From Acidobacteriota bacterium (lineage in GTDB: Bacteria; Acidobacteriota; UBA6911; RPQK01; JACQSY01), in the NCBI GenBank assembly GCA_016211085.1, contig JACQSY010000039.1, forward strand, positions 3,129-67,128: 64,000 nucleotides of DNA, written 5' to 3'. Every line of letters begins with the position of its first letter. Position 1 is the stretch's first letter. Positions 18,592 to 61,816 of the stretch are shown in pieces. Position numbers and translations under genes: made by a program. A model generated the notes under the pieces. The model saw nothing but the letters and a program-made list of their open reading frames with translations, made no database searches and was not told where the DNA came from.

Positions 18592-20685
18592 ATGAAGGTT
18601 TTCGACAGCGAGAGCATCCGCAACGTAGCCGTGGTAGGGCACGGAGATGCGGGGAAGACTTCGCTGGTCAGTGCGCTGCTTTACTCGGCCGGAGCGGTTA
18701 ATCGATTGGGCCGCGTCGAAGACGGGAACACGGTGACTGATTACGACGAAGACGAAATAGAACGAAAAATAACCATCAATACCTCCCTGGCATATCTGAT
18801 CTGGAAAGATACCAAGATCAATCTGCTCGACACTCCCGGGTACGGGGCATTCATTCTGGACACAAAGGCATCCATGATCGCTGCGGAAACCGCTCTGGTG
18901 GTGGTAGAAGCAGTCTCTGGAGTCGGAGTCCAAACGGAGAATGTTTGGTCATTTGCTGAAGAATTTGGACTTCCGAGAGTTCTGGTGGTCAACAAAATGG
19001 ACCGCGACCGGGCCAGCTTCAGCCGAAGCCTGGAATCCATACAGGAGTTATTCGGCCGCACCTCCGTCCCGGTGCAGCTTCCGATCGGTGAAGAAAAGGA
19101 GTTCCGCGGTGTAGTCGATTTGGTGCGCAACAAGGCCTACTTGTTCTCCACGGACCCAAGTGGAAACTTTGAAGAAGTTGATATTCCGGAAGAGGTACGC
19201 GCAGTAGCCGCGAAAAGCCGCGATCAACTGGTGGAAATGATTGCCGAGAGCGACGACGCTTTAATGGAGAAGTTCTTTGAACAGGGTGGTCTGAGTGAGG
19301 CCGAACTCGTTACCGGACTTCGCAAATCAATTCAGTCGCTGAAAATATTTCCTGTCTTCTGCGCCAGTGCCACATTGAACATGGGCGGCAAACCTCTACT
19401 GGACGCCATTCAAGCCTTTCTGCCCGGTCCCCTGGAGCGAGGACCAGTGCAGCTACGAGATTTGAAGACGAAACAGGAACGAGAATTTGCCATTAGCAAA
19501 GAGGGTCCGGCTGCTGCATTTGTATTTAAGACCTTGGCTGACCCCTTCGCCGGCCGTATCAGCATGCTGAAAGTTTTTGGAGGAACCCTAAAATCGGATA
19601 CCACTTATCGCAACTTCTCCAGGGATATCGATGAACGAGTAGGCTCACTTCAGATCCTCCAAGGAAAATCTCATGAGGCTGTTTCTGAAGTCAGAGCGGG
19701 AGACGTCTGCACCGTACTGAAGCTGAAAGAGGCCACGACAGGTGATACCCTGGCCGATCGTTCATTTGCCGCTGCTTTTCGCTCGGTCGAGTTTCCAGAG
19801 CCCGCCATCAGTTTTGCCGTTGAGCCTAAGTCACGAGGTGATGAAGACAAAATCGGCGGTGCCATCGCCAGGATCATTGAAGAAGATCCGTCCATTGGAT
19901 TCCGCCGGGATCCTCAGACCAAAGAATTCCTTCTTTCAGGAACCGGACAGCTTCACGTAGAGGTGGCGGTTGCAAAATTAAAAAAGAAATACGGTGTCGA
20001 AGTGGTGCTCAAGCCGCCAAAGGTGCCTTATCGCGAGACCATTACCGGGACAGCCGACGTCCAGGGACGGCATAAAAAGCAAACGGGAGGCCACGGCCAG
20101 TTTGGCGACTGTAAGATAAAAATGGAGCCGCTTCCCCGAGATTCCGGTTTGCAATTTGAGGACGCCATTTTTGGGGGGGCAATCCCACGGAATTATATCC
20201 CCGCCGTGGAAAAGGGAATCGTCGAGGCGGCTGAAAAAGGCTTTCTCGCTGGTTTTCCAGTCGTGGATTTCAAGGTAATACTCTACGACGGCAGTTACCA
20301 CGAGGTGGACTCCTCCGAACTGGCTTTTAAGATTGCCGGATCGCTGGCATTTAAGAAGGGAATGGAAATGGCCAAGCCCGTCCTGCTTGAGCCTATAATG
20401 AATGTTGAGGTTTATGCTCCCGAGGAAGATGCAGGCGATCTTATGGGAGACTTGAACAGCCGCCGTGGAAGAATCCAGGGAATGGATTCACGCGGTCATG
20501 TGCAAATCATCCGGGCTCAAGTTCCTCTGTCGGAAATGCTGAATTACTCCTCTGCGTTGACTTCCATGACCGGAGGGCGCGGCAGCTATCATATGGAAAA
20601 CTCACATTACGATATCGTGCCGGCCCATCTGGCTGAGCGCATCATCGCTGAAGCTCGAAAAGAAAAGGAAGAAAAAAGCGCCTGA
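18592..20685 (+). CDS. Elongation factor G paralog (EF-G2-like translational GTPase)
   Basis: GTPase motifs GHGDAGKTS, DTPG, NKMD, followed by EF-G domains II-V. Good AGGAG Shine-Dalgarno. It is not embedded in an rpsL-rpsG-fusA-tuf context. Confidence 0.88.
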   Translation: MKVFDSESIRNVAVVGHGDAGKTSLVSALLYSAGAVNRLGRVEDGNTVTDYDEDEIERKITINTSLAYLIWKDTKINLLDTPGYGAFILDTKASMIAAETALVVVEAVSGVGVQTENVWSFAEEFGLPRVLVVNKMDRDRASFSRSLESIQELFGRTSVPVQLPIGEEKEFRGVVDLVRNKAYLFSTDPSGNFEEVDIPEEVRAVAAKSRDQLVEMIAESDDALMEKFFEQGGLSEAELVTGLRKSIQSLKIFPVFCASATLNMGGKPLLDAIQAFLPGPLERGPVQLRDLKTKQEREFAISKEGPAAAFVFKTLADPFAGRISMLKVFGGTLKSDTTYRNFSRDIDERVGSLQILQGKSHEAVSEVRAGDVCTVLKLKEATTGDTLADRSFAAAFRSVEFPEPAISFAVEPKSRGDEDKIGGAIARIIEEDPSIGFRRDPQTKEFLLSGTGQLHVEVAVAKLKKKYGVEVVLKPPKVPYRETITGTADVQGRHKKQTGGHGQFGDCKIKMEPLPRDSGLQFEDAIFGGAIPRNYIPAVEKGIVEAAEKGFLAGFPVVDFKVILYDGSYHEVDSSELAFKIAGSLAFKKGMEMAKPVLLEPIMNVEVYAPEEDAGDLMGDLNSRRGRIQGMDSRGHVQIIRAQVPLSEMLNYSSALTSMTGGRGSYHMENSHYDIVPAHLAERIIAEARKEKEEKSA

Positions 20686-35713: not shown

Positions 35714-36478
35714 TTATTTGACCCTTGCCGGCACGTAGCGATTCAAAGCGTCAAGAAATGGCCTGACGACGGAGTTTGAACGGATCTTTCCCCGCATCAA
35801 GATGTCGGTACCAGAGACATCCTTACCAAAAACCTTGTGATTTGCGCTGTCGTTAATGTTGAGCCCAGCCCCATCCAGCGCTATTCCTGCAAACAGCCCC
35901 TTGCTGCGTGAATAGGAATAAATGGAAGCATCCATTCGCACGTTGGTGCTGGCCGAGGCCGTTCGCCCTACCGGCCCGGCTGCAACGGAAGCGTCAACCC
36001 CCATCTTCAGACCCTTGTCATTCAGCAAAGCCTGCAGCCCGTCATCGTCTGTGAAAACGAGTACCAGGTCCATCTTGGTAACGCCGATCTGAAAACCTAA
36101 GCTGGCCCCGCCCAGGTCGACGAAGCAGGGCGTGCTCCAAGCTTTTGCAGAAGTTCGTCTGGAAAGCAGTCCTTTTCCATAGGAACCACCAATGCCGAAA
36201 GCTCCTTTAACCATTCCGGGAATCACGGCGATGGCATGGGCGCGCTCCAATAAATCCTTCGGTATTCCTTTCTCAGGAACTCCAGAAAGCTCGGCTAAGA
36301 CTTCCGCCGCTTCCTTGGAACGTTCTATGTAATCCTCGAGGTCCTTCTGCTTCTCGTCACCCGGAGACTTTCGAGGAGCTTCGGCCGCTAAGACCAAGTA
36401 CGGCAGAAACGCGAGGGTCATTATGGAGACCCGCGCCCGTAATGAAATGAAAGATACCCATGATCCACGTCGATACAT
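35714..36478 (-). CDS. Secreted SYLF (Ysc84/DUF500) lipid-binding-domain protein
   Basis: Core ...AIAVIPGMVKGAFGIGGSYGKGLL...GGASLGFQIG... is typical of SYLF. Start placed at MYRRGSW... (36478), which has a GGAGGGAGG Shine-Dalgarno and lies downstream of the predicted sigma54 promoter. Confidence 0.72.
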   Translation of the reverse strand: MYRRGSWVSFISLRARVSIMTLAFLPYLVLAAEAPRKSPGDEKQKDLEDYIERSKEAAEVLAELSGVPEKGIPKDLLERAHAIAVIPGMVKGAFGIGGSYGKGLLSRRTSAKAWSTPCFVDLGGASLGFQIGVTKMDLVLVFTDDDGLQALLNDKGLKMGVDASVAAGPVGRTASASTNVRMDASIYSYSRSKGLFAGIALDGAGLNINDSANHKVFGKDVSGTDILMRGKIRSNSVVRPFLDALNRYVPARVK

Positions 36479-36537
36479 GTGTGACTCTCTTCCTCCCTCC
36501 TTCCGAAACTTCATGGACGGTGATTGCTCTAATGGAG

Positions 36538-36552
36538 GCAAGTCGGATGCCA
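36538..36552 (-). promoter_or_regulatory. sigma54 (-24/-12) promoter candidate P2: TGGCAT-CCGAC-TTGC
   Basis: The minus strand reads aacTGGCATccgacTTGCCtcc. The GG and GC dinucleotides have the canonical spacing. It lies about 60 nt upstream of the SYLF gene start at 36478. Confidence 0.6.
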
Positions 36553-36719
36553 GTTCCGTTTCAGAATCACAGAAAGTTAAGACTGTATCTTTTCAAGCTT
36601 TACCGTTTGGAAGAGAGCAGGACGCTTTCCGTCACACAGGAATTTTTCTCAGCAGAAAAGAATTTTTTCCCTTTTTGAGACGGCTCGCTTGAGGAAACCG
36701 TTGGTTCTCACCGGCGAGA

Positions 36720-36890
36720 TCACAGCCGGCGCGGTCGGATCAATCCGGTGATCAGGAAAATGAGAAACATTGCTATGAAAATCAAGAAAAGAATTTTGGC
36801 GATCCCGGCAGCCGTGGCAGCAATTCCTCCGAAGCCGAGCAAGGCGGCTACCAGCGCGATTGCTAGGAAAACAAGAGCCCAATAAAGCAT
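36720..36890 (-). CDS. DUF1328 (UPF0391) small membrane protein
   Basis: [39 protein letters not shown]... is the characteristic DUF1328 sequence. The start at 36890 is preceded by GGAGGTG. The longer track ORF would swallow the promoter. Confidence 0.8.
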
Positions 36891-36919
36891 GAGAAACAGC
36901 ACCTCCGAAAAGCTTTCTG

Positions 36920-36934
36920 GCAACTTATGTGCCA
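36920..36934 (-). promoter_or_regulatory. sigma54 (-24/-12) promoter candidate P1: TGGCAC-ATAAG-TTGC
   Basis: The minus strand reads caaTGGCACataagTTGCCaga, about 30 nt upstream of the DUF1328 start. The element is part of a TGGCA-N7-TGCCA palindrome, so a weaker plus-strand reading (TGGCAA-CTTAT-GTGC) faces the CBS gene. Confidence 0.65.
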
Positions 36935-37000
36935 TTGCCGTCCCGGGTTCGGATCAGTGGTGCTAATATGAAATAAAGAATCTTCTATTGGAGGTATGTC

Positions 37001-37417
37001 ATGAAAGCCCGCGAGATCATGACCAAACATCCGGCAACGTGCACGGAGGATGATCCCATCTTGAACGCGGTTCAAATCATGAAGCAGCACGACTGTGGTG
37101 CTGTGCCGGTCACCGACCTGCAGGGGCGCTGCGTAGGTATAGTGACCGACCGTGATATTTGCCTTGAAGTAGTACTCAAAGGCTTGGGGCCGGAGAAATC
37201 CCGGCTTCGTGAGATCATGAGTTCCCACCCCGTTACCTGTAATCCACAAGAAGACATAGAACGGGTTCTCCAAAAGATGGAAGAGCACCAGATCCGTCGC
37301 ATTCCTGTGGTGGATGAATCGGGGAAATGCGTGGGCATCATCGCACAGGCAGACCTGGCCCTAAAGGTTCAAGAAAAGGAAAAAGTCAGTGAGCTGGTCG
37401 AGGCGGTCTCTCGATAG
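37001..37417 (+). CDS. CBS-domain pair protein
   Basis: Two CBS motifs (...IMTKHPATC......VQIMKQHDCGAVPV... and ...IMSSHPVTC...HQIRRIPVVDESGKCVGII). GGAGG Shine-Dalgarno 5 nt upstream of the ATG. Confidence 0.85.
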   Translation: MKAREIMTKHPATCTEDDPILNAVQIMKQHDCGAVPVTDLQGRCVGIVTDRDICLEVVLKGLGPEKSRLREIMSSHPVTCNPQEDIERVLQKMEEHQIRRIPVVDESGKCVGIIAQADLALKVQEKEKVSELVEAVSR

Positions 37418-57472: not shown

Positions 57473-57487
57473 TGGCACGCCGGTTGC
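57473..57487 (+). promoter_or_regulatory. sigma54 (-24/-12) promoter candidate P3: TGGCAC-GCCGG-TTGC
   Basis: Reads cacTGGCACgccggTTGCCtga on the plus strand, 150 nt upstream of the OmpA-family gene start. Matches the consensus TGGCAC-N5-TTGC. Confidence 0.7.
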
Positions 57488-60457: not shown

Positions 60458-61816
60458 TCACTCAAGCCCGTAAGATTTTAGCTTGTTGCGAATCGTCTTA
60501 ACATCCAGCCCCAAAACCCGGGCGGCCTCAGCTTTGTTGTTGCCCGACTTGGCCAATGTTTTCATGATCAGCTCTTTTTCCGCCTCGGCCACGGTGGTTC
60601 CCACGGAAAGGAAGATTTTTTCTCCGGAATCAGCCCTGGGATTCTGAATATAGGGAGGCAGATGAGAACCCTCGATCCATTCGCCGCGAGCCAGAATAAC
60701 TGCCCGTTCAATGATATTCTTCAGCTCTCGCACGTTGCCCGGCCAGTCGTATGCTTTGAGCATTTCCATCACACCGTCACGCAACGCTTGAATCCGGGTA
60801 TTGTGCTTGCGATTGAATTCACCGATGAAATGCTGCACCAGCAGGGGTAAATCTTCTTTGCGTTCCCGCAGAGGAGGAATGGTCACAGTAAATACGTTCA
60901 GCCGGTAATAAAGATCCTCTCTCAGACGGCCATCCTCGACAGCTTTTTTGGGATCCTGGTTCGTCGCTGCCAAAACGCGGACGTCAAAAGACATTTCTTG
61001 ACGCCCTCCCAGTCGACGCACTTTACCGTCCTCAAGCACACGTAAGAGCTTAGGCTGAAGAGACATCGGCATTTCGGCAATTTCGTCCAGCATCAGTGTG
61101 CCTCGGTTCGCCAACTCAAAACAGCCTGGCCGCACCCCGGCGGCTCCAGTAAACGCCCCTTTTTCGTGTCCAAACAACTCGCTTTCGATCAGAGTCTCAG
61201 GAATTGCCGAGGCATTAATGGCGATGAAGGGACCGGTAGACCGGCTGCTCAACTCATGGACGGTGCGTGCTGCGAGCTCTTTTCCAGTTCCGCTCTCCCC
61301 GGTGATCAGAGCGATCGCATCGGTGCCGGCAAGGCTCTGGAGGAGTTCATAGACTTCTTTCATGCGGCGGCTGGTTCCTATGAAATCTCCGAAACCAGAT
61401 CCTTTTTCCAGTTTCGAACTTAATTTGCGCGACTCTCGTCGAAGTTGTATTTCTTTCTCTGCGGCCTCGAGGGTGGCCTTGAGCTTTGGATGATCAAGCG
61501 GCTTGGTCACGAAATCCTGAGCACCCTGCTTCATGGCTTCCACGGCCATATCCACACTTCCTTGCGCGGTAATCAGGATCACCGGCCTGGAGGGATTGCC
61601 GGACTTGAGCAGGCGCAGCAGCTCGAGACCCGAAGTCCCCGGCATGACGATGTCCGAAATGACGATGTCAGGGTCCTGACTCTCTACGATTTTTTGTCCT
61701 TCGATTCCATCCGAAGCCATCAACACCTCGTATCCCCAGTGCTCTAGCAGCAGCTGAAGGGACTCGAGCATGCCCGCTTCGTCGTCCACAACCAAGATTC
61801 GAGTTGGAGTCGTCAC
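60458..61816 (-). CDS. NtrC-family sigma54-dependent response regulator
   Basis: Receiver (ILVVDDE...DIVMPG), AAA+ (GESGTGKE, canonical GAFTGA at 61142-61159, RVLAATN) and a C-terminal Fis-type HTH (NKAEAARVLGLDVKTIRNKLK). Confidence 0.9.
   Translation of the reverse strand: MTTPTRILVVDDEAGMLESLQLLLEHWGYEVLMASDGIEGQKIVESQDPDIVISDIVMPGTSGLELLRLLKSGNPSRPVILITAQGSVDMAVEAMKQGAQDFVTKPLDHPKLKATLEAAEKEIQLRRESRKLSSKLEKGSGFGDFIGTSRRMKEVYELLQSLAGTDAIALITGESGTGKELAARTVHELSSRSTGPFIAINASAIPETLIESELFGHEKGAFTGAAGVRPGCFELANRGTLMLDEIAEMPMSLQPKLLRVLEDGKVRRLGGRQEMSFDVRVLAATNQDPKKAVEDGRLREDLYYRLNVFTVTIPPLRERKEDLPLLVQHFIGEFNRKHNTRIQALRDGVMEMLKAYDWPGNVRELKNIIERAVILARGEWIEGSHLPPYIQNPRADSGEKIFLSVGTTVAEAEKELIMKTLAKSGNNKAEAARVLGLDVKTIRNKLKSYGLE

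Follow-up and report, generated by a model that had tools for sequence, protein, structure and literature searches.

The window analysed here is a 64-kb stretch (64,000 nucleotides) of a contig from an Acidobacteriota bacterium, in which a gene for a small membrane protein of the DUF1328 family and a divergently oriented CBS-pair gene are separated by a 110-nt spacer. Within this spacer, intergenic and in the sense orientation for the DUF1328 gene, lies a sequence with the features of a sigma-54 (RpoN) promoter (Table 1). On the minus strand positions 36934 to 36920 read TGGCACATAAGTTGC(C), that is, TGGCAC-ATAAG-TTGC and then C and A, and direct reading of the plus strand gives TGGCAACTTATGTGCCA for 36918-36934. 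An earlier note on this DNA had described the minus-strand sequence TGGCAC-ATAAG-TTGCC as a full match to TGGCAC-N5-TTGC about 30 nt before a DUF1328 start at 36890, and the sequence confirms both parts of the description: there are zero mismatches, and 30 nt separate the C of the -12 element (36920) from the ATG at 36890. The invariant GG (36933-36932) and GC (36921-36920) of the minus strand are exactly 10 nt apart, the arrangement that defines a sigma-54 site, and relative to the longer consensus TGGCAC-N5-TTGCW the sole deviation is a C at the final W. Given the 30 nt between the -12 C and the ATG, transcription would be expected to start near 36908 and to leave a leader of ~18 nt. Only two sites in the 64-kb window match TGGCAC-N5-TTGC at zero mismatches, the DUF1328 site among them; the other (TGGCACGCCGGTTGCC, 57473-57487, plus strand) stands 150 nt before a gene for an OmpA-family lipoprotein (PF00691), and an NtrC-type sigma-54 activator gene is found at ~60884-61381 on the minus strand. 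A two-hexamer scan of the DUF1328/CBS spacer detected no full -35/-10 promoter of the sigma-70 type on either strand, and the spacer gave zero matches to Rfam families. Its sequence is 100% identical in both public contigs that bear the same CBS protein, and is thus uninformative on strain variation. Contigs of this organism are present in SRR12113390 and SRR12113401.

Table 1. Genes and sequence elements at the DUF1328 locus (positions in the window)
Feature	Position	Strand	Remarks
Pseudokinase-STAND-TPR sigma-54 activator gene, 1,676 aa	29433-34463	+	2.3 kb from DUF1328 gene
SYLF/Ysc84-domain gene	35714-36478	-	PF04366, E=8e-36; downstream of DUF1328
Second sigma-54-like site, TGGCATCCGACTTGCC	36537-36552	-	One mismatch; 60 nt upstream of ATG 36478 (SYLF/Ysc84)
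DUF1328 (YtjA/UPF0391-type) small membrane-protein gene, 56 aa	36720-36890	-	PF07043, E=1.2e-13
Shine-Dalgarno GGAGG of DUF1328	36902-36906	-	1-2 nt past predicted transcript start; leader ~18 nt
TGGCA-N7-TGCCA palindrome, 17 bp	36918-36934		Holds promoter core; judged incidental
Putative sigma-54 -24/-12 core, TGGCAC-ATAAG-TTGC	36920-36934	-	Predicted transcript start ~36908
Candidate extended -10, TGCTAATAT (TGcTAATAT)	36961-36969	+	By eye; could drive CBS gene with housekeeping sigma factor
CBS-pair gene, divergent	37001-37417	+	PF00571, E=1.6e-35; plus-strand reading of the element points at this gene

Translation from 36890 gives a 56-aa product whose match to Pfam DUF1328 begins at residue 6 (51.6 bits, against a gathering cut-off of 27) and which is 48-67% identical to 11 homologues. 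Homologues without exception begin ML(Y/R/S)W at the position of ATG 36890, fifteen bases ahead of the domain. Public gene callers, too, give a 71-aa ORF from 36935; since the homologue N-termini align at ATG 36890, that ORF is over-extended and the true start is this ATG. The claim in the earlier note that the track ORF is too long is thereby borne out, by the homologue N-termini together with the GGAGG that precedes ATG 36890. At the other end of the gene, a 14-nt inverted repeat (TCACCGG...CCGGTGA, 36708-36751, minus strand) spans the DUF1328 stop codon. The GC-rich hairpin that it forms is not followed by a U-tract and may act as an mRNA 3' stabiliser or as a non-canonical terminator; a scan of the interval between the DUF1328 and SYLF/Ysc84 genes found no canonical intrinsic terminator. 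A low-complexity 13-nt sequence, AGAAAAGAATTTT, is exactly repeated in direct orientation, with one copy ahead of the second sigma-54-like site, in the spacer (36654-36666), and the other within the DUF1328 coding sequence (36785-36797).

Sigma-54 and its candidate sites across the genome

The assembly comprises 3.54 Mb in 152 contigs and is 87% complete. It contains 13 exact matches to TGGCAC-N5-TTGC where a first-order Markov model predicts ~10, so the exact-motif count alone is not significant and is not used as evidence; the match at the DUF1328 gene becomes significant only through its position and through conservation in other genomes. For genome-wide ranking, GG-N10-GC sites were given a simple consensus score, a heuristic and not a calibrated matrix, and gene boundaries in these statistics were taken from a crude longest-ORF caller. 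By this score the DUF1328 core is among the 11 best sites of the whole assembly, and eight of the 11 lie outside deep coding sequence, compared with 2.9 expected (P=0.0017). Genes preceded by good sites include those for a type IV pilin and the small subunit of a NiFe hydrogenase, which belong to the classic sigma-54 targets, and also BON, OmpA lipoprotein, DUF4159 and FeoA genes. The -12 element TTGCC, as found at the DUF1328 site, is common among the good sites. The sigma-54 consensus is in use in this genome.

The earlier note had made its proposal depend on the presence of rpoN. The gene is present and complete, as an intact 485-aa ORF on contig C42 (Sigma54_DBD, 190.9 bits), and is followed by a gene whose product we recognise by eye as HPr-kinase-like. 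The encoded RpoN is 45-46% identical to the proteins of Bryobacterales, Acidiferrales and a deltaproteobacterial MAG alike, and Sigma54_activat proteins are represented by 14 matches above 200 bits. Contig C4 provides an internal positive control in the form of TGGCATGCCTGTTGCC (-12 position 1169, minus strand), which lies 38 nt upstream of the type IV pilin gene (N_methyl motif); a sigma-54 activator gene (C4:1823-2323) adjoins the pilin gene, in the classic PilR-type arrangement. On contig C62, tandem sigma-54-like sites with -12 positions at 19740 and 20410 (plus strand) precede a gene for a BON-domain (OsmY-like) lipoprotein and then a gene for a small secreted protein. In E. coli, osmY and ytjA are neighbours, so these tandem sites hint that a broader group of stress genes is under sigma-54 in this genome.

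DUF1328 loci in other genomes and the neighbouring genes

DUF1328 loci were compared across other genomes that share the order and phylum of this bacterium (n=35), with sense sigma-54-like sites scoring at least 5 counted within 250 nt upstream of the gene, and the comparison indicates that the element has counterparts elsewhere. Eight of the 35 loci carry such a site, where their own flanks would predict 0.73 (Poisson P ~1e-6, a value that overstates the case because related genomes are not independent), and antisense sites were found only three times. The best of the same-phylum sites are TGGCACATCTCTTGCT in G415 and TGGCGCAGAGCTTGCT in G021, both at 49 nt, TGGCATCGAACTTGCT in G303 at 60 nt, and TGGAACGGGCCTTGCA in G024 at 97 nt. 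The relatives' sites thus vary in sequence and in distance, and what appears to be conserved at DUF1328 loci is the regulation and not the sequence. The spacing of the present site does recur, in that a distance of 27-31 nt between the -12 C and the ATG is also seen in G342, G407, G438 and a Bryobacterales MAG (L125). Among named DUF1328 loci from all bacteria (n=80), seven have sense sites compared with 2.7 expected, and six of the seven are outside Proteobacteria (Syntrophales, Bryobacterales, Pirellulales and Myxococcales MAGs, Schlesneria and Botrimarina), the seventh being Pseudomonas oleovorans; the Planctomycetota, Myxococcales and Bryobacterales are thus among the groups with good sites. 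In the Syntrophales MAG, which contains the nearest named homologue (80% identity), TTGGCACATGTTTTGCTT lies 142 nt upstream of the gene with no intervening ORF. No sigma-54-like site was found at 27 of the 35 same-phylum loci or at most of the proteobacterial ones, and the link between DUF1328 and sigma-54 is therefore lineage-patchy. Two loci, L055 (G342:C1, ~2646000) and L060 (G438:C2, ~1692000), have divergent sigma-54-like sites arranged back to back in the interval between DUF1328 and an oppositely oriented neighbour, which in G342 encodes a lipoprotein (antisense site TGGCACCGCGCTTGCT) and in G438 reads by eye as an Fe/Mn superoxide dismutase.

The SYLF/Ysc84 gene downstream may be co-regulated with DUF1328. 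Its own sigma-54-like site has weak comparative support, since two sense sites were found at 29 loci of SYLF/Ysc84 homologues where 0.4 were expected. The gene order itself is also found in G065 (L203, G065:C35:42948-43998), where a tandem DUF1328 pair is followed directly by a Ysc84/SYLF homologue of 56% identity; no sigma-54-like site was detected at that locus. The very large activator gene 2.3 kb away is a candidate regulator of the DUF1328 promoter by proximity. A tblastn search of eight relatives' DUF1328 loci (20 kb each, ~10 kb per side, one of them 13 kb) found an activator in one of the eight and the giant protein in none, so that the connection to the giant activator rests on its proximity, and its candidacy as a conserved partner was rejected. 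In the search for an activator binding site, the DUF1328 and SYLF/Ysc84 promoters were compared for repeats and dyads, and 14 candidate promoters for 8-mers in common. This search yielded no repeat or dyad common to the DUF1328 promoter, the neighbouring promoter and the other candidates; the words that were shared are A/T-rich and without fixed position, and a shared activator site was rejected. The stretch ~80-200 nt upstream of the DUF1328 promoter falls inside the CBS gene.

For the CBS gene, the candidate extended -10 in the spacer would leave a 25-nt leader. Loci of CBS homologues (n=20) contain two sense sigma-54-like sites compared with 0.56 expected, both in paralogues of one genome. 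These are the CBS-pair genes of L080 and L083 (G050:C250 and G050:C59), which have in common an upstream block of ~70 nt ending in TGGAACGGCGG(A/G)TGC and may be sigma-54-driven.

Readings of the palindromic element

The intergenic sense position of the site, the failure to detect a sigma-70 promoter and the recurrence of such sites in relatives make a genuine sigma-54 promoter the most likely identity of the element, and we regard minus-strand 36934-36920 as probably a working promoter of the DUF1328 gene. On this model sigma-54 RNA polymerase would bind the GG at -24 and the GC at -12 and wait there as a closed complex, which an ATP-hydrolysing enhancer-binding protein would open on a signal. 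Transcription of DUF1328 would proceed from ~36908, with a leader of ~18 nt whose 5' end all but coincides with the Shine-Dalgarno sequence, and the SYLF/Ysc84 gene would probably be switched on in parallel from its own weaker site. Both sigma-54 dependence and the transcript start are features that we infer, and the very short predicted leader was counted against the promoter reading.

The main competing explanation is that the sigma-54 match is due to chance and that DUF1328 is driven from an unrecognised promoter by a different sigma factor, perhaps an ECF or housekeeping one with a lineage-specific consensus. That the exact-motif count equals expectation genome-wide and that no activator site was found are what this explanation would predict, and the family is indeed under other sigma factors elsewhere, YtjA being controlled by sigma-S in Salmonella (PMC5437024). 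However, at the genome-wide rate an exact match would fall on the correct strand of a 110-nt spacer with a probability of ~2e-4, and a chance origin would not account for the independent sigma-54-like sites that recur at DUF1328 genes in several lineages, for the recurrence of the short -12-to-ATG geometry, or for the spacer in which a sigma-70-like promoter was undetected. We consider a chance match unlikely, if still worth bearing in mind. The remaining explanations concern the palindrome that encloses the core. As the earlier note had described, TGGCA-N7-TGCCA is present at 36918-36934 and the plus strand reads TGGCAA-CTTAT-GTGCC, a weak match (score 4.0) directed toward the CBS gene. Its further proposal, that a single element could support two divergent sigma-54 binding modes, found no support, as the plus-strand score is at background and the dyad is neither recurrent nor conserved. 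The genome has 2,745 sites that reach a score of 4.0, or about one per 2.6 kb per strand. The mirror on the plus strand arises because any TGGC...TTGCC has GG-N10-GC on both strands, and mirrored sites make up 52 of the 506 that score at least 5 in this genome and five of the 11 best; where TTGCC is followed by a final A, for which the chance is 1 in 4, TGGCA-N7-TGCCA is complete. The palindromic extension looks incidental, a by-product of a -12 element that reads TTGCCA.

Binding of the holoenzyme to the single palindrome in either direction, so as also to drive the CBS gene or to tune both genes by competition, is improbable. The possibility draws on the GG-N10-GC present on both strands, on a normal distance of 69 nt from the plus-strand -12 C (36932) to the CBS ATG, on the conserved upstream sequence of the two G050 paralogues, and on the back-to-back sites at the DUF1328 loci of G342 and G438, although these are in each case two separate sites aimed at other genes. 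What opposes it is the background level of the plus-strand score and the automatic nature of the mirroring, to which can be added that the palindrome is conserved at no relative's site, that the two CBS homologues nearest in sequence (43% and 40% identity) are without a site, and that the candidate extended -10 recognised by eye offers the CBS gene an ordinary alternative. The stricter form of this idea, a true dual-orientation site occupied by one holoenzyme at a time, with mutually exclusive expression of DUF1328 or CBS decided by the activator, we judge to be a little more improbable still. Such a site would call for a significant match on each strand and for its conservation in relatives, which was not found at the DUF1328 locus, where none of the relatives' sigma-54-like sites is palindromic, and we know of no description of a shared dual-orientation sigma-54 promoter of this kind. 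The perfect 5-bp arms, the 7-bp spacer and the central position in a divergent intergenic region would suit an operator at which a dimeric transcription factor controls the divergent pair, with the likeness to sigma-54 sites being coincidental. Yet TGGCA-N7-TGCCA is present in five genome copies, no more than the same arms show at spacings of 3-10 nt, and the crude gene caller puts all five inside ORFs, the DUF1328 copy being included because its ORF is over-extended; with no excess over other spacings, a recurrent operator was rejected. Relatives moreover keep the sigma-54 features (GG, GC and TTGC) and not the dyad, and the locus is without an adjacent regulator gene, all of which makes the operator very improbable.

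Relation to known sigma-54 systems

The DUF1328 element has the sequence features of a sigma-54 promoter and is, at that level, an ordinary one. Its modest uses are that it settles where a mis-annotated small gene begins and that it offers a way to test the regulation of DUF1328/YtjA, a small membrane protein that is very widespread and uncharacterised. Because the SYLF/Ysc84 gene has its own weaker sigma-54-like site, it and DUF1328 probably make up a module that is inducible and serves the envelope or the stress response. In Salmonella, ytjA is tightly controlled by RpoS (sigma-S) (PMC5437024), and with that precedent an envelope or stress module run by sigma-54 is the most economical reading. 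A role in stress is one that we infer from these associations, and the giant protein encoded nearby is a candidate for the activator by its position. Published sigma-54 regulons and the literature, as surveyed here, yielded no link of DUF1328 or ytjA to sigma-54.

Divergent transcription from sigma-54 promoters has a known form in zraP/zraSR of E. coli, a divergent promoter pair, and the known divergent sigma-54 pairs consist of two separate promoters around a common enhancer. The back-to-back sites at the DUF1328 loci of G342 and G438 are similar to this arrangement, whereas the element proposed for the present locus would be one fully overlapping palindromic site, for which neither support nor precedent was found. 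Canonical -24/-12 promoters include glnAp2 and pspA of E. coli, nifH of Klebsiella and pilA of Pseudomonas and Myxococcus. The putative DUF1328 promoter is like these in its TGGCAC-N5-TTGC sequence, in the GG and GC ten bases apart, and in its genomic setting with a sigma-54 gene and AAA+ activators, and the pilin and hydrogenase genes of this genome, which correspond to canonical targets, carry similar sites. It is unlike them in its unusually short predicted leader (~18 nt) and in its target, a 56-aa DUF1328 membrane protein.

The comparison with YtjA of Salmonella and E. coli places this target in a broader context. The proteins belong to the same family (PF07043), are of the same size and have two predicted membrane helices, and both genes would be under an alternative, stress-linked sigma factor. 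The difference is in the factor itself: ytjA is RpoS-dependent, whereas the signal upstream of the gene in this genome, and in several lineages outside Proteobacteria, is of the -24/-12 type, which needs an ATP-driven activator. Recurrence of such sites in Acidobacteriota-type genomes, Planctomycetota, Myxococcales and Syntrophales supports the idea that some phyla use sigma-54 activators where enterobacteria use RpoS.
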